Source of the DNA: a phage
Length of the DNA stretch: 44,130 nt
Strand: one strand, 5' to 3'
Sequence record: QB031380.1
Part shown: one piece after another, positions 5,729 to 43,063 of the stretch
Layout of the letters: every line of letters starts with the position of its first letter
Position numbering within the stretch: position 1 is the first letter of the stretch
Program-made: the position numbers and the translations under genes
The notes under the pieces: model-generated
Told to the model about the DNA's origin: nothing
The model's database searches: none
What the model saw: only the letters and a program-made list of their open reading frames with translations

Positions 5729-6006
5729 TGACACCAGAAGGCAAGATCCAAACTCACTTGATGAGACGGGTGAAAGCCGTCGGCGGATTCTGCCGCAAAG
5801 TGGCTTGGGAGGGGCGCGCAGGTGCGCCCGATCTGATTATCATCATCAACGGCAAGATAGTTTTCGTCGAAGTGAAGCGCCCAGGCGGTAAACCTAAGCC
5901 GCACCAGGTACGAGAACATGAGCGAATGGCCCGCCGCGGTGCGGACGTTCGCGTTATCGACAGCATAGCCGACTGTGATTTATTGGTTGCTGAATTGGTC
6001 GCGTAG
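5728..6006 (+). CDS. VRR-NUC domain nuclease
   Basis: 92 aa; GAPDLIII...VEVKRPGGKPKPHQ pattern typical of VRR-NUC; directly downstream of PolA. Confidence 0.7.
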   Translation: MTPEGKIQTHLMRRVKAVGGFCRKVAWEGRAGAPDLIIIINGKIVFVEVKRPGGKPKPHQVREHERMARRGADVRVIDSIADCDLLVAELVA

Positions 6007-23645: not shown

Positions 23646-23710
23646 TATGCAGTCCCCCTTTTTTATGCAGTTGCCGTCGGTCATTGTATCAGCGAATTTA
23701 AAACAAACCT

Positions 23711-24030
23711 TATTCAGTCTCAGACGAGGGGGGCCATTGACCCCCGTCTAGTCTGAAAGACTGGGGGTTGTCCCGCCTGTCCCGATCGGCTAAAACCCGC
23801 GGCAGCACTGACGGGGACAGGGGTGCTGTCCCGCTTTGTCCCGCCTCATTCTGTCCCGCTTTTTGTCCCGCTTACTTTATGCAGAAAAACCGCATAGCTA
23901 TTCACTTTAAGGGGCGGGACAGATCGGGACAGCACCCCTGTCACGCTTTTAGTTTATGCAATGAAAGTGAGTATATATGCGGTTTTAATGGTGGCGGGAT
24001 AAAACGGTACGTCCCGCCTGTCCCGCTTCG
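23711..24030. repeat. Iteron-rich intergenic element, copy 1 (GTCCCGC in both orientations, GC hairpin, AT-rich segment)
   Basis: At least 10 GTCCCGC/GCGGGAC heptamers; 23711-23884 is near-identical to 40531-40705. Confidence 0.8.
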
Positions 24031-24707
24031 TTATGCGGGGTTCTGCCGCGCCATTTCATCCAGCGCAACGCGTTCCATTAGTTTGATATCTTTAAACGCA
24101 CGTTGCGCGTTTTCGATGCCGTGCATCCTAAACAGCCATTCCAGTACGCCGTAGTCGATGCCGTATGCGCCACCAAATCCGGTGCGCCATTGCGTGGAGC
24201 AATCGGTGAAGACTGCGACTACCTTCGCGTTGTCGGGCCATAGCGCAACTGGCGGGCACACGTCTTCAGGTGTCGCGCCCCATAAACTCGCGGCTAAATC
24301 TTCGGAGGGTGGCGGCGGGCCATAAAAGCGCCGCGCCGCCTCAATTAGTTTTTTTCACGCAACCCCATCAATTCGAGGTAGTACGACGTATGGAACACGC
24401 CGAACGCGCGCGGGTAGTTGACCACCAGGCGGCGGACGTTGGCGGCATTAAATTCGTCCGGCAAATTCCAGCCTTCAGCGACGTGCATGATGGCCTCGAC
24501 CATAACGTTAAATCCTTCCGGGTCATTGTCGTCATACTCCGACAACTTGCGTTCAGTGTCCTGCATGGTCTGCGAAAATTCGTCGATAGGGCGGTGGCGC
24601 ACGGTAAACGTCATTTTGCCCGGTTCGTTCTCACCAGGGCGCGGGATCTCAATCGGCAGCTTAAAGGTCGGTTTAGGGTCAAGTGTGAAGAGTGGTGATT
24701 TAGCCAT
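24031..24707 (-). CDS. GT: tail assembly chaperone frameshift fusion (lambda GT-like, -1 frameshift near 24348-24354)
   Basis: The -1 frame is open from the slippery heptamer through to 24031. Confidence 0.55.
24345..24707 (-). CDS. G: tail assembly chaperone (lambda G-like)
   Basis: Upstream of tape measure; ends at slippery site A AAA AAC and stop; internal ATG 24707 with GGAGA RBS. Confidence 0.65.
   Translation of the reverse strand: MAKSPLFTLDPKPTFKLPIEIPRPGENEPGKMTFTVRHRPIDEFSQTMQDTERKLSEYDDNDPEGFNVMVEAIMHVAEGWNLPDEFNAANVRRLVVNYPRAFGVFHTSYYLELMGLREKN
24348..24354 (-). other. -1 programmed ribosomal frameshift slippery heptamer A AAA AAC
   Basis: Heptamer lies immediately before the G stop codon; read directly from sequence. 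Confidence 0.55.
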
Positions 24708-26580: not shown

Positions 26581-26940
26581 TTAGCCCCTTAGCTGTAGTT
26601 GAAACAGCATGGTCTGGCCCGCCGGTTGCAGGGGGTTGGGATTGATAACCCGGTAGTCTGTATTGTTCAGGCTAACCAAATCCCCGACCTTTACCTGCTT
26701 GACGGCCTGACACAAAAACTTCACATCACCGGCAACGATACGCGTCCCGTCGATCTCGCTCGGCTTGTACTCCTCTCGAAGACCGATGACGTCGAACGAC
26801 GTTGGCGGGATTATCACTTCGTCGCCGTCTACGCGGTCAACCGACCCCGGACGCGTCACCGTAGCCGTCATGCCGAACTTTTTAATCAGCGGATTGACTT
26901 TCCGCTTTAACCCCGCGTAATTAAAGCCCGCCATTATCAT
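26581..26940 (-). CDS. head closure / head-tail joining protein (by position)
   Basis: 119 aa ORF in the connector region. Confidence 0.35.
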   Translation of the reverse strand: MIMAGFNYAGLKRKVNPLIKKFGMTATVTRPGSVDRVDGDEVIIPPTSFDVIGLREEYKPSEIDGTRIVAGDVKFLCQAVKQVKVGDLVSLNNTDYRVINPNPLQPAGQTMLFQLQLRG

Positions 26941-27038
26941 CCTCCTGTACCGGTGGTTCCGGTTCTGGCGCTGGTTCCGGTTCTGGTTGGCGTTTAGTAT
27001 TTGCGGCGATAATAGCCGCCAGAAATGCAGGATTCATA

Positions 27039-27581
27039 TCACCCCCGGAATACATCAAAATTACCCGCTGCGTTGCCACCTGAGTCAATCCAGCGGCCCA
27101 GCAAGCCATCCCACCACGGGAACGAGACACCGCTACCAATCGTCGCAGGGTCATATTCCATCGTGATCGGGCCAACAGTTTCGCGGATAGTCTCCTTACC
27201 GCTGCCCACAGGAGAAATATCAACCTCGTCCGCCACCAACATCGCCAACCTGTAAACGGCTTGCTCAACGGCTACGGGGATTGATGCGAAGTCTACGATT
27301 TGCCCTGCAGGCACTACTGCCACAACTTCAGTGAGCGTGTCGCGCACCGGCTTACCGTCCGACTGGTAATTAAGGCGGGGCCATGCGTCGATGCCGGTCT
27401 GGTCTGCGGGTTCTCCGATCCAGTTGATGCCGTTAAGGAAGTCATTAGCGACGGTAAGGTGTCGCGTTGCATCGCTCAGCGTGACTTCAACGCCTCGCGC
27501 AGCGGCATAATCAACAAAGGTTTGCGGGTCGCCATACATTGTATTCGCTCCTATAAAAAAGGCGGGCATAAGCCCGCCCAT
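27039..27581 (-). CDS. head-tail adaptor protein (by position)
   Basis: About 165-180 aa ORF downstream of the major capsid gene; start uncertain. Confidence 0.35.
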   Translation of the reverse strand: MGGLMPAFFIGANTMYGDPQTFVDYAAARGVEVTLSDATRHLTVANDFLNGINWIGEPADQTGIDAWPRLNYQSDGKPVRDTLTEVVAVVPAGQIVDFASIPVAVEQAVYRLAMLVADEVDISPVGSGKETIRETVGPITMEYDPATIGSGVSFPWWDGLLGRWIDSGGNAAGNFDVFRG

Positions 27582-27597
27582 TTGGGATGTGCGCCCG

Positions 27598-28698
27598 TTA
27601 AGACGCGGTAGTCGCAGTCAGCGTAACCAGTACGCCCGCCGTTTCCTTGATGTGACGGGTAGGCACTGCCTGTGCGGCCTGGGTCTTACGACGGCCTTTA
27701 GTATCGCCATCACCCACCGCGCCAACATCTTGAACGGTTGCCGGTGCGTTGTCTACCTGGCCCTGGTCCAGTTCCCAGTTAGCTGAAGTGGTGATATCGT
27801 CCAGTTTGAACGAGCGAACGCCTTCGATTGGGGTGCGAGCGGACGCCTTCAGACGATAGCCTTTAACCGCCACGTTGAAGTCGAACTCGCCCTGCCACCA
27901 GCGCTCAATGTTCTCGTTACCACCTTTTTCCTGCGCCAGCATATCAAGGCCGTTGGTGGTAACTGCAACCGCGCCAGGGACCAGGCCCAGCATTTTACCC
28001 GCGCCCATTGCATCGGCAGCGGCATCGGAGATAATGAAACGGCGGCCCAGGCCATCGCCCATTACCTGCAGATCGCCGATCGCGAATACCTGCTCGGCAG
28101 ATGGAAGCGCCTGATAAGCGATGAAGTTTGCCCAGGTAACGCCATCCATAAACCAGGATTTAATTAAAGACGCCTGATCGCCAAACTTAGAAGCCGCCAG
28201 CGGGAAGTCTGCCAGGGTCGGGAAGGTACGACCGCCAACGCCATCGACGCGAGCAGGTTGGGTGTAGTTTGCCGCTGAGTTGCTTTCGATAGCCGCTTTA
28301 CCCGCGCCGATACCCGCTTTCAGATAGTGCAGCATAATCGCTTGAGTGGCCTGTGCCGCAATCTCAGCCGCAACGCTGTTAACGTTGGTTTCGATCTTGG
28401 CCATCATGGCCTTAGTGATTGCTACCGGACCAACTTTAGCGGAAAGGTTAACCGAGTTGGTCAGCATACGCGCCAGCACTTTTGCGGTCGCGGGAGTACC
28501 GACAGGGGCGTAGGCGTTACGGTCGGTAACGAGGTTGGCGATCAAGCCTACGGACATTTTTTCTACAACGTCCTTCAGCACTTCACCCGTGCCGAGAACA
28601 ACAGCTCCGTTAGCGGCGGCGTTGAACACGTTCAGGTTGTCGGGGATCATTTGCGTAACCGCGGTGACGAGTTTACGCTGGAACACTGTTAAAGACAT
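27598..28698 (-). CDS. major capsid protein
   Basis: 366 aa, downstream of scaffold and upstream of connector genes. Confidence 0.7.
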   Translation of the reverse strand: MSLTVFQRKLVTAVTQMIPDNLNVFNAAANGAVVLGTGEVLKDVVEKMSVGLIANLVTDRNAYAPVGTPATAKVLARMLTNSVNLSAKVGPVAITKAMMAKIETNVNSVAAEIAAQATQAIMLHYLKAGIGAGKAAIESNSAANYTQPARVDGVGGRTFPTLADFPLAASKFGDQASLIKSWFMDGVTWANFIAYQALPSAEQVFAIGDLQVMGDGLGRRFIISDAAADAMGAGKMLGLVPGAVAVTTNGLDMLAQEKGGNENIERWWQGEFDFNVAVKGYRLKASARTPIEGVRSFKLDDITTSANWELDQGQVDNAPATVQDVGAVGDGDTKGRRKTQAAQAVPTRHIKETAGVLVTLTATTAS

Positions 28699-40347: not shown

Positions 40348-40376
40348 AATCTAGCAGGGTGCTGGCTCGAATGCAA
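40348..40376 (-). promoter_or_regulatory. sigma70-like promoter TTGCAT-N17-TAGATT flanked by TTGGTTGCA elements
   Basis: Minus strand reads ATTGGTTGCAT...TAGATTGGTTGCAC. Confidence 0.45.
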
Positions 40377-40530
40377 CCAATATTAATCATGCGCATGAAA
40401 AAGTTGATCGCTATCTGCTGTGACTGCAAACTGCATTTTTCGCACCACGTTCTGCATCTCGCATTGGTTGCCTAGTTCAGTGGCGACCGCAATCCGCAAC
40501 ATGCTGCCGTGTATTTTGCAATCCCGGATT

Positions 40531-40705
40531 TTATGCAGTCTCAGACGAGGGGGGCCATTGACCCCCGTCTAGTCTGAAAGACTGGGAGTTGTCCCGCCTG
40601 TCCCGCTCCTCGCCAGGCCGCGTCATCCGGGGCGGGACAGGGGTGCTGTCCCGCTTTGTCCCGCCCTTGGTCTGTCCCGCTTTTTGTCCCGCTTACTTTA
40701 TGCAG
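40531..40705. repeat. Iteron-rich intergenic element, copy 2
   Basis: Near-identical to 23711-23884; bounded by TTATGCAG at both ends; about 8 GTCCCGC/GCGGGAC heptamers. Confidence 0.8.
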
Positions 40706-40740
40706 TTTTATTGCATAACTATTCACTATATTTTTACTAC

Positions 40741-40790
40741 ACGGCAACCAATGCGACCGACTAAAAATACACAAAACGGCAACCAATGCG
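40741..40790. repeat. Direct repeat ACGGCAACCAATGCG x2 just downstream of the primase/helicase stop
   Basis: Two identical 15-mers about 34 bp apart. Confidence 0.6.
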
Positions 40791-40798
40791 CGCAAAAT

Positions 40799-43063
40799 TT
40801 AATCTTTCAGGTCGTCATCGGTAGCTGAAAGCGTTATGGGGATATCCGATTTGATGACTAAATTCGACGACCCATATATGGCCCCGGTGTGCGGATCTGT
40901 ATAAAAACCAATCACGCCGCGCTCGACCATATCGTCGATTGCCTTCGTCGAAGTACCACCCTTAGCGAGTCCCGCCTGGCGGACAATTGCCGATTTACTG
41001 AATCCAGTATGGTCCGGGTTATCTTCCATCAGTTTTTCCAGGGCCGCATAAAGCACTTTCTCTTTTTCGTTGCGCGGTCCGGCGGCGTTTTCTTCCTTAA
41101 CTGCAGCTTTGCCCGCGGCCTTCGCCTGTTCGATGGCGAACGGTGCCAGGGCGACCGGTACGAGGTACAGAGTCTCGTCGCGTGGCGTGGACGCAATTGG
41201 TTTAACGTCCCAACCGGCAACTACGTCGCCGAAGTCCGGCCCGGTGCTGGTGGACTGGTGCGACGCGAACGCTTCTGACTTGCGGAGATCTACCTTCACC
41301 TTGCACTTGAGCAGGACGAAGCCACGCGGCGCTTGCTTGATGCCATTACGTGATTTTTCGTGATACAGGTTAAGTTGTCCCGGCTGGTTGTCGTCCGGCT
41401 GTTCCAGGAAGAAAGCGGAATCGACAGCACCATGCAGTGCGCCGGACCCACGGGGAGATCTGCTACCGTTTGCACCCTTCGCAGGGTGGTGGATGACGCC
41501 CGCACTGCCGCCTGTGTTTTCCGCGATGGCTTTTAGCGCTTTAACCACTTCGCCCATATCGCTGGCGTTGTTCTCGTCAAACGGTTTAGCATCGGCGGAC
41601 CGCAGCGCAACAGTCTGGTTGAGTGAGTCGAACGCCACCAGGCCAACAGGTTCGCCGTTAGCGGTGCGGTTGATAAAGCTGATAACTTCGCGCAAACCGG
41701 ACTTGCTGGTGATATCCCAGCCGCGGGACTGCAGGTCTATAATGTGCAGCTTGTCCAGGTCGTGCTCGTATTTAATCTGCAATGCTTCTTTGCGCTGGTT
41801 GGAGGCTTCGCCGCCTTCCGCATCAAAATAGAAGCAATGCGACTGGACTACCTTCGCACCACCAAACGGAATACCAGCGGCAACCGCACCCATCTGCCCC
41901 AGCACGTAGAAGGACTTACCTATGTTCGACTCGCCCGCCATATACCAGGTCGATTTGAAGTTAATCAGCCCTTCGATGATCGGGTCGTGCTTGCTGAACA
42001 GTGCGACCGGCTCGTTATCCAGGTCTGCGTCCGTACATTCGCCGTATTCTTCGCCGTCGCCAACCGCATCAACAATATGATCATATAAGGATTCGACTTC
42101 CTCGTCGTCCAGACCTGGCAGGATGGCGGCGATTTGCTTACGTGACATGTTGTGTGGCTCGACGTTCAGGTGGTCCGGGATACCGATAAGACGTAGCGCC
42201 AGGTGCTGGTGTCTATTCAGCTCCGAGCAACACTCGTTGCCTGTGTGCATACACTTGAAACGGATCTCGCCATCCTTAACCATGATAGCCGTCGACCCTT
42301 CGCCGCTGTGCAGATGTTCGTTCGGGCACGGCACTTCATAACCGCGACCGGATGATAACTCCTCGAATCCTGCCTGGAAGCACCAGTCCAGAATGCCGTC
42401 TGCCACTGCGTCGTCGCCCTGGGTAAGCTCGCGGCGTACTTCCTCTTTCTCCACCCCCAGCTTGTCAGCCAGGCGGAGCAGACGCCGCACATTTGCACGT
42501 TTGCCGTAGTGACACTTAATGACAGACTGCTGGTGTGGCAGGTACATAAGACGGTTTGTGTCCTTCGTACAATCGTCGAAGTCCACATCTGACAGGCCCA
42601 GTTGGTGTAATAGCGCATACTGGACACGGCCCAGGTCTTCCGCCGGGACAGGCTTGTCAGTGAGTACCAGGAAGCGAGCGCAACGCGTTCCGCCTTTCAG
42701 TGGGTGGCGGTCGCCGGTGGTTGTGTGGAATACGTGCTCCAGCCCCGCGTCGATGAAAGCCTTACGGCAGCGGCGTAGGGTGCGGGTGTCGGTACGGTCA
42801 ATATCGAAGAACAGGATCGAGCGGTCCACCGCACTGGTCTTGCGGCGTAAGCCGTCACTGGTATACGCCACGATGCCATCGGCCTTACGCTTGCGGCGTG
42901 CATACTCGGCTTTATCTTCCGTCTTGTTGATATGCACCGAGGAGATTTCTTTCGCATCATTGATAAATTCGAAAAATTCATCGGTGGTCATCTGGAAGTT
43001 TTCCGCCCTGGCTTTTTCGCCTTTTTTAGCGGGTCTTGTTACAGCGAATTTAATTAAGCTCAT
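40799..43063 (-). CDS. DNA primase/helicase (primase-like N-terminal region plus RecA-like ATPase)
   Basis: 754 aa; Walker A GESNIGKS; Cys-rich middle segment. Confidence 0.65.
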   Translation of the reverse strand: MSLIKFAVTRPAKKGEKARAENFQMTTDEFFEFINDAKEISSVHINKTEDKAEYARRKRKADGIVAYTSDGLRRKTSAVDRSILFFDIDRTDTRTLRRCRKAFIDAGLEHVFHTTTGDRHPLKGGTRCARFLVLTDKPVPAEDLGRVQYALLHQLGLSDVDFDDCTKDTNRLMYLPHQQSVIKCHYGKRANVRRLLRLADKLGVEKEEVRRELTQGDDAVADGILDWCFQAGFEELSSGRGYEVPCPNEHLHSGEGSTAIMVKDGEIRFKCMHTGNECCSELNRHQHLALRLIGIPDHLNVEPHNMSRKQIAAILPGLDDEEVESLYDHIVDAVGDGEEYGECTDADLDNEPVALFSKHDPIIEGLINFKSTWYMAGESNIGKSFYVLGQMGAVAAGIPFGGAKVVQSHCFYFDAEGGEASNQRKEALQIKYEHDLDKLHIIDLQSRGWDITSKSGLREVISFINRTANGEPVGLVAFDSLNQTVALRSADAKPFDENNASDMGEVVKALKAIAENTGGSAGVIHHPAKGANGSRSPRGSGALHGAVDSAFFLEQPDDNQPGQLNLYHEKSRNGIKQAPRGFVLLKCKVKVDLRKSEAFASHQSTSTGPDFGDVVAGWDVKPIASTPRDETLYLVPVALAPFAIEQAKAAGKAAVKEENAAGPRNEKEKVLYAALEKLMEDNPDHTGFSKSAIVRQAGLAKGGTSTKAIDDMVERGVIGFYTDPHTGAIYGSSNLVIKSDIPITLSATDDDLKD

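Follow-up and report, generated by a model that had tools for sequence, protein, structure and literature searches.

The complete genome of an HK578/JL1/SO-1-like Escherichia coli siphophage of the genus Dhillonvirus (record QB031380.1; 44,130 nucleotides, hereafter the window) carries two related non-coding repeat elements, ∼16.8 kb apart, built from an 8 bp unit, GCGGGACA. With roughly even confidence, we read both elements as cis-acting arrays for a single phage-specific protein, the likeliest reader being the C-terminal winged helix of the phage primase-helicase, at sites of replication-origin type. We favor an origin-type function because the iterons are lineage-specific and lie directly 3′ of the helicase gene, because that gene is predicted to encode a winged helix, and because the least stable DNA of the genome lies beside the iterons. 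The copy next to the helicase gene (copy 2) occupies a widely conserved position and is the stronger candidate for the primary origin. For the other (copy 1), situated in the tail operon and served by the same binding protein, we envisage the role of a second origin or of an enhancer acting in cis.

Both loci have been annotated before. We call copy 1 region A and copy 2 region B, following the GenBank record of the congeneric Sodalis phage SO-1 (GQ502199, 2009), which marks the same two loci as repeat_region features with “direct, inverted and palindromic repeat sequences” that are mutually similar and have a “possible” function; it is an annotation only. Our literature searches found no paper on these repeats, the phiEap-2, vB_EcoS-B2 and eiAU papers making no mention of them, and no mapping of a Dhillonvirus replication origin. 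Thus, the two regions themselves and iteron origins of multifunctional primase-helicases are already known. What is new is that the iterons are lineage-specific across Dhillonvirus, Eiauvirus and Guernseyvirinae, that a predicted winged helix co-varies with them, and that the tail-operon locus is conserved.

Gene order was taken from the JL1 and SO-1 annotations. Region A lies inside a 384 bp non-coding gap of the minus-strand late gene array, bounded by the tail chaperone genes G/GT (the T part ends at 24031) and the tape-measure gene (ATG at 23646). Region B (∼40536–40743) is directly 3′ of the 754-amino-acid primase-helicase gene, whose stop codon (40799–40801) is 47 bp from the region B AT block. 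The two copies share ∼190 bp with 89% column identity. Read on the minus strand, the direction of transcription, this shared unit comprises an AT module (GTGAATAG(T/C)TATGC...TGCATAAAGTAA), four GCGGGACA iterons in two pairs 10–12 bp apart, one inverted unit and a spacer, and then two further iterons 9 bp apart followed by an imperfect hairpin block. What precedes the shared unit differs between the loci: in region A it is an extension, in which iterons forming a palindromic cluster are joined by another AT module and a pair of inverted iterons, and in region B it is two copies of a different motif, CGCATTGGTTGCC.

The repeats are strongly concentrated at the two loci. The window holds 18 copies of TGTCCCGC, where 2.0 would be expected; no shuffle reached this count, and 14 of the copies fall in the two elements. 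Iteron sites total 12 in region A and 7 in region B, with pairs 9–10 bp apart, so that each locus holds the array of at least three repeats that characterizes an iteron-type origin.

A sequence-only reading of this DNA had singled out copy 1 as the more origin-like, on the grounds that it alone runs into AT-rich DNA and that this DNA is flanked by further iterons in inverted orientation. The flanked stretch of about 45 bp is indeed present. The 45-mer TTTTAGTTTATGCAATGAAAGTGAGTATATATGCGGTTTTAATGG at 23947–23991 has a GC content of 29%, against 55% for the genome, placing it within the lowest 0.2% of 45 bp windows genome-wide; GCGGGACA (23914) and TCGGGACA (23924) lie to its left and GCGGGATA (23994), CGTCCCGC (24010) and TGTCCCGC (24019) to its right. 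The flanking units are inverted with respect to the core array only, since the two that border the block (23924 and 23994) share one orientation. The claim of exclusivity fails, however, as copy 2 also continues into AT-rich DNA (40689–40752), where GC drops to 22%. Calculation of helix stability, proposed with that reading as a check, likewise places the genome minimum at copy 2: by nearest-neighbor free energy, 40694–40738 is the least stable 45 bp window of the genome and 40706–40735 the least stable 30 bp window, while the copy-1 AT block ranks eighth and fifth, respectively. By both composition and nearest-neighbor stability, therefore, low-stability AT-rich DNA lies beside the iterons, as expected of an origin, and an origin-type layout is the best-supported reading of the element family. 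It is the preference for copy 1 that does not survive, because the block adjoining copy 2 is more AT-rich and less stable and the copy-2 site beside the helicase gene is kept in distant relatives, whereas the copy-1 site is found in Dhillonvirus and Eiauvirus only. The larger number of iterons in copy 1 and its extra AT module are compatible with a second origin or an enhancer-type site; they do not make it the primary origin candidate.

The extension contains no novel sequence and is made of partial inverted copies of the core element. Positions 23816–23845 and 23913–23942 form a 30 nt inverted repeat (93% complementary), and positions 23886–23908 and 23964–23986 a second one of 23 nt (87% complementary). 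In this way, copy 1 gains two further iteron clusters and a second AT module. In most relatives the right-hand cluster is a perfect palindromic quartet, GCGGGAC-AGGCGGGAC|GTCCCG-TTTT-GTCCCGCC. The AT module of the shared unit (23872–23912) has homologous counterparts in copy 2 (GTGAATAGTTATGCA...TGCATAAAGTAA) and in distant relatives, where (T)GAATAGTTATGCA is conserved.

Within the genus, region A is a constant feature. Phage vB_EcoS_PS2 is 97% identical over a 2 kb stretch around it, and region A is present in all 159 phage records that match this stretch, mostly with two to three matching places each. In a 17-genome alignment, identity is 0.89 for the iteron columns of region A and 0.80 for its non-iteron columns, and some genomes carry a 10 nt insertion that adds one more iteron. 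The higher identity of the iteron columns points to purifying selection on the sites. There is no conserved reading frame in region A, and its indels are not multiples of three. The stems of the copy-1 hairpin are invariant across Dhillonviruses while its loop varies, and the inverted iteron pairs are kept in all genomes, with the 30 nt inverted repeat remaining complementary in a subset only. In the comparison with related genomes that had been suggested for the extension, all Dhillonvirus relatives examined have it. No part of region A is less conserved in sequence than its AT block, for which pairwise identity averages 0.77, against 0.88–0.95 for core and hairpin, though the block stays at 23%–44% GC in 18 of 18 genomes. 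Region B is better conserved throughout than region A.

Beyond the genus, relatives whose primase-helicase is 37%–45% identical, and one further lineage (L108), have the same layout with different iterons. The repeated unit is CGGACAA in Enterobacter phage phiEap-2, GGGGAGA in Salmonella phage St162, and TCCGACA, AGGGATA, GGGGATG and TGGACAT in the lineages designated L042, L044, L047 and L108, respectively; a lineage with a 68% identical helicase retains GCGGGACA. The order kept in these relatives is the helicase stop codon, the (T)GAATAGTTATGCA module, iterons in both orientations, a long imperfect hairpin and a promoter. L108 was found by probing IMG/VR with the 14-mer TGAATAGTTATGCA. The matches listed were mostly due to chance, and among them a local k-mer enrichment screen recovered phiEap-2, L108 and L152. 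The hairpin block folds better than its shuffles in all eight sequences compared (three Dhillonvirus-type and five from other lineages; z from −2.4 to −5.0), and its sequence differs between them. A search of E. coli genomes and plasmids, for example for satellites carrying the iterons, gave no match to the element.

In phiEap-2, iterons cluster genome-wide only behind the helicase gene. TTATTCC/GGAATAA repeats form a cluster of their own between head genes of this phage (L168, 11800–11920) and are unrelated to the CGGACAA iterons. phiEap-2, St162, XY2 and TS33, all Guernseyvirinae, have no gap between the chaperone and tape-measure genes and thus no tail-operon copy. We had considered region A to be specific to Dhillonvirus and dropped this idea on finding a homologous second locus in the chaperone/tape-measure gap of Edwardsiella phage eiAU-183 (Eiauvirus), whose helicase is 45% identical. 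The two eiAU loci share a 52 bp segment at 88% identity, multiple TGCAACCAAC repeats and an iteron of their own, (A/C)TCGCCCCG, and the tail-operon locus has a hairpin like that of Dhillonvirus. The two-locus layout thus appears either to predate the genus Dhillonvirus or to have arisen twice. In each genus the loci share a lineage-specific iteron, which speaks for a single protein reading the two of them and for a functional region A. The non-coding regions of eiAU-183 (L172) are long, ∼900 bp and ∼1.1 kb (26897–27793 and 42123–43017 plus 1–221); the helicase-adjacent one has a 28 nt inverted repeat (GCCCCGGGGGCACTTATTGATTTATAAGG and its complement) around ∼220 bp of AT-rich DNA with TTATGCA motifs, and the GenBank record is split inside the tail-operon region.

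The candidate initiator is a multidomain protein. Pfam assigns it an AAA_25 domain, and its helicase core matches RSF1010 RepA (1g8y, 1nlf) with TM-scores of 0.66–0.70. The N-terminal domain matches a PHROG primase family and has invariant residues D87 and D89 (a DxD motif) and H120, and a Cys/His cluster occupies residues 246–287. A search of the PDB with the helicase sequence returned only a marginal RepA match and none to P4 α, and a sequence search with the N-terminal 300 residues returned nothing useful. At the C terminus (about residues 666–737), a helix-helix-helix-wing module is predicted, followed by an acidic tail. The 45% identity between the eiAU and Dhillonvirus helicases extends from the N terminus to residue 691 and stops just before the recognition helix and wing. 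The recognition helix starts with GGT(S/N)T in the two lineages confirmed to have GCGGGACA, a start not shared by lineages that use other iterons. A winged helix that reads the iterons would be expected to vary in this way, although the match is a correlation rather than proof. A gene for a 109-amino-acid helix-turn-helix (HTH) protein lies directly upstream of the helicase gene. The acidic tail itself (..TDDDLKD, 40799–40816, minus strand) is conserved, with D751 and L752 invariant. T7 gp4 and gp2.5 contact DNA polymerase through acidic tails, which this tail resembles, and the phage possesses both a DNA polymerase like that of T7 and a single-strand binding protein like gp2.5. Another protein, the 380-amino-acid “putative transcriptional regulator” (a homolog of SO-1 gp58), was tried as the iteron binder and rejected, being metallophosphoesterase/exonuclease-like.

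We propose that the primase-helicase would bind the 8 bp GCGGGACA units, paired at one-helical-turn spacing in direct and inverted orientation, and that the bound molecules would oligomerize beside the low-stability AT-rich module. Melting of this module would allow the protein to load itself as a hexameric RepA-type helicase, and the conserved hairpin block, on becoming single-stranded, may be a priming or assembly site.

Several points weigh against this proposal. Binding, melting, loading and priming are all steps that we infer, set beside an observed body of sites, conservation, lineage co-variation, predicted fold and stability ranking. Another phage protein may bind the iterons, and with candidate promoters immediately downstream of both elements the same contacts may act in transcription. 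GC skew in the window shows no shift at either locus and follows gene orientation. There is no exact DnaA box; one-mismatch matches number 51 against 55.6 expected, with one in region A (23877), none in the copy-2 shared unit and one at 40436 in the same non-coding gap. No integration host factor (IHF) consensus site was found by scan. In four helicase homologs (L038, L039, L043 and L045), the gene is followed by ordinary terminators with no iterons, and in XY2 it is followed directly by an opposite-strand gene. We note that host-factor sites such as DnaA boxes and IHF sites are found in many plasmid origins but are not obligatory for phage origins, and their absence above chance or by consensus fits a phage-autonomous initiator.

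The arrangement resembles several known systems, and we consider it evenly poised whether the elements are iteron origins of the P4, pRN1 and Staphylococcus aureus pathogenicity island (SaPI) kind, one of them helicase-adjacent and one a second origin or enhancer. P4 α binds two loci, ori and crr. As in P4, we find a multifunctional primase-helicase with a C-terminal winged helix (here predicted) and iterons of ∼8 bp, direct and inverted, at two separated loci, one of them near the replication gene. The P4 origin repeats are bound through this C-terminal winged helix (PMC4234260). However, P4 α combines a TOPRIM primase with a superfamily 3 (SF3) helicase, in contrast to the AEP-like (archaeo-eukaryotic primase) domain and RepA/RecA-type helicase found here; the iteron sequence is different, and the second locus here lies within the tail operon. 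No sequence similarity to P4 α was detected, and because protein homology fails, we regard the system as an analog of P4 and not as a family member. The plasmid pRN1 encodes ORF904, a protein with primase, helicase and winged helix, in an operon behind a small repressor gene; its probable origin, an essential cis element, is a stem-loop 3′ of its own gene, conserved in structure and variable in sequence (PMC4234260). The phage protein likewise joins an AEP-like primase domain and a helicase to a predicted C-terminal winged helix, its operon likewise begins with a gene for a small DNA-binding protein ahead of it, and a hairpin of conserved structure lies 3′ of a helicase gene that itself lies behind the 109-amino-acid HTH gene. 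The helicase class differs (SF3 in pRN1, RepA-type here), and pRN1 is an archaeal plasmid with a single locus and no iterons.

The helicase core matches RepA of RSF1010 (IncQ), whose oriV has iterons, AT-rich DNA and hairpin priming signals and is served by RepA, RepB′ and RepC. The origin logic of iterons, AT-rich DNA and hairpin is the same, but RSF1010 uses a separate RepC initiator, 20 bp iterons and two hairpins on opposite strands (ssiA and ssiB), whereas here the functions are apparently fused in one protein, with one hairpin block per element. In SaPIs, the helicase-initiator gene (rep) is followed at once by the origin, where iterons specific to each island flank AT-rich DNA, and the initiator of Bacillus phage SPP1 binds oriL and oriR, one in the replication genes and one among late genes. 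The phage elements recall SaPIs in the position of the origin 3′ of a helicase-initiator gene, and SPP1 in having two distant origin-like regions. These proteins belong to other families, and the likeness is one of layout, drawn from descriptions and not from sequence. By analogy, P4 crr and SPP1 oriR may serve as precedents for the second site.

A different possibility, which we consider rather unlikely, is that the elements are transcriptional control regions, at which a phage protein (possibly the same winged helix or the 109-amino-acid HTH protein) would switch on, block or insulate the downstream promoters and so time middle and late expression. The promoters concerned would be TGATACAAT ahead of the tape-measure gene and TTGCAT-17-TAGATT after copy 2. 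Both elements do lie in non-coding gaps of a co-oriented gene array and are followed by genus-conserved candidate promoters; copy 2 stands where the replication genes give way to those for lysis and packaging; and an HTH/σ70 region 4-like protein is encoded beside the helicase. However, the arrays are 90–300 bp upstream of the promoters, with the hairpin in between and no overlap, and control of transcription predicts neither arrays so strictly tied to the helicase gene, at its 3′ end, nor divergence confined to the winged helix. The phage also has a separate promoter-associated motif, GCAACCAAT, in 14 exact copies, while the GCGGGACA arrays occur at two loci only; because that motif is genome-wide and intergenic, the GCGGGACA arrays are not the general operator of the phage. 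A role that we regard as improbable would make region A something other than a conventional origin and couple replication to tail morphogenesis through it. Its occupancy by the helicase, or by a fork started there, would gate or boost transcription or gene dosage for the tape measure and the distal tail. Two phage genera keep the layout of region A, with its co-evolving iterons.

Still less probable is an RNA-level element, in which hairpin and repeats in the minus-strand transcript would terminate, attenuate, process or stabilize mRNA and could lower tape-measure expression relative to tail tube and chaperones. The hairpins do fold better than shuffles, the whole region is within the transcribed gene array, and an ARNOLD annotation of phage PTXU06 by another group puts a weak terminator in region A. 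On the other hand, our scan finds no intrinsic terminator in either element; the hairpin lacks a U-tract, the sequences after it (GAGACTGAATAAGG and GAGACTGCATAAAA) not being T-runs, and consensus scans for σ70 promoters and terminators return nothing inside either element. Rfam 15 gives no hit at the gathering threshold for the whole window, and at an E-value threshold only sub-threshold, miRNA-like hairpin noise. The iterons, moreover, occur in both orientations, and it is the 8-mer rather than a pairing partner that is conserved. That copy 1 arose by duplication of copy 2 and survives as a relic without function, with an incidental AT block, seems to us very unlikely: Guernseyvirinae do well without a tail-operon copy and sequence conservation within region A is lowest in the extension, but region A is present in 159 of 159 matching records, its iterons are conserved above background, and the copy at the same position in eiAU carries the eiAU iteron, so that the two loci co-evolve. 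We give least credence to a pac recognition site or other DNA-organizing site, for instance an array bound by the small terminase or a site resembling those used in partition. The small terminase does resemble P22 gp3/Sf6 (both Pfam matches are below gathering thresholds), and terminases of this type imply that packaging is headful and starts at pac; some pac sites (SPP1, P1 pac) are known to contain repeat arrays. For terminases of this type, however, pac lies in or beside the small-terminase gene, whereas the arrays are ∼5 kb and ∼11 kb from it; they sit at the 3′ end of the helicase gene, and iteron identity follows helicase lineage.

If the iteron-origin reading is correct, it would provide testable origin candidates for Dhillonvirus, Eiauvirus and Guernseyvirinae, and a self-loading primase-helicase whose winged helix co-varies with its iterons. 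Dhillonviruses are among the commonest E. coli siphophage isolates and are used in defense-system and phage-therapy work. Their two-locus layout, with one copy in the tail operon, lends itself to the question of why a second region for initiator binding is kept by phages. Coordinates of the individual features are collected in Table 1.

Table 1. Features of the two repeat elements and their surroundings, in window coordinates
Feature	Position	Strand	Details
Candidate extended −10 promoter TGATACAAT	23683–23691	−	∼37 nt upstream of the tape-measure ATG; read by eye
Copy-1 imperfect hairpin/inverted-repeat block	23715–23763		CAGTCTC-AGACGAGGGGGG-loop-CCCCCGTCT-AGTCTGAAAGACT
Core iteron array, copy 1	23769–23871	−	Six GCGGGACA units at 23864, 23852, 23837, 23827, 23778 and 23769
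Degenerate inverted unit in core array	23812–23819		
AT module of shared unit, copy 1	23872–23912	−	Minus strand reads AAAGTGAATAGCTATGCGGTTTTTCTGCATAAAGTAA
Inverted iteron pair GCGGGACA and TCGGGACA, with GCACCCCTGTC	23913–23946		10 bp spacing; right arm of the 30 nt inverted repeat
Extension AT block	23947–23991		Inverted, diverged copy (23964–23986) of the AT module 23886–23908, plus TGCATAA motif
Right-hand iteron cluster of extension	23994–24026		GCGGGATA (23994), degenerate ACGGTAC, CGTCCCGC (24010), TGTCCCGC (24019)
Stop codon of chaperone T part	24031–24033		Abuts right-hand iteron cluster
Candidate σ70 promoter TTGCAT-17 nt-TAGATT	40348–40376	−	Would serve genes downstream of copy 2; read by eye
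Copy-2 hairpin block	40536–40584		Same as copy-1 hairpin in this genome, including the loop
Copy-2 iteron array	40590–40692	−	Six GCGGGACA units and one inverted unit at 40632
Copy-2 AT block	40693–40743		Has GTGAATAGTTATGCA and TGCATAAAG; adjoins iterons
754-amino-acid primase-helicase gene	40799–43063	−	AEP-like N terminus, Cys/His motif, RepA-like core, predicted winged helix, acidic tail

Of the two candidate promoters, TGATACAAT is invariant in 17 aligned relatives and has no −35 match, and both were missed by the consensus scan. In the promoter after copy 2, both hexamers are overlapped by ATTGGTTGCA, an instance of the GCAACCAAT motif. Exact copies of this motif lie at 5982, 8924, 8941, 10603, 13508, 29603, 29617, 39787, 40342, 40373, 40463, 40744, 40779 and 43593, and allowing one mismatch gives 29 matches genome-wide against 12.4 expected. 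The copies are often paired, 14–31 bp apart, and intergenic, and two of them cover the −35 and −10 elements after region B. A phage regulator probably uses GCAACCAAT as its operator or promoter motif; eiAU has the related motif GCAACCAAC, and Guernseyvirinae have CAGCCAAC.

GATC sites abut iterons of region A at 23782–23788 (CCGATCGG), invariant in relatives, and at 23922–23926 (GATCGGGACA). The phage encodes its own adenine and cytosine methyltransferases, and methylation could therefore modulate iteron binding. In some Dhillonviruses (L025, L026, L029, L032 and L036), region B has a tandem duplication of ∼54 bp just after the helicase stop codon, which contributes an extra CGCATTGGT(T/C)GCC site and a palindrome, ATATGGGAATTCCCATAT.

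Many GenBank records annotate one to three small “hypothetical proteins” under region A, and the window has a 128-amino-acid open reading frame with a TTG start across it (23768–24154, plus strand). The indels, together with the repeat structure, make these small reading frames unlikely to be genes, and the annotated proteins are probably spurious. The adjoining chaperone pair is a classic programmed frameshift, annotated as two separate genes in most records: the G gene ends in ...GAA AAA AAC TAA (24345–24356, minus strand), where the stop codon follows directly on the slippery heptamer A AAA AAC, and reading in the −1 frame is open from this site to 24031.

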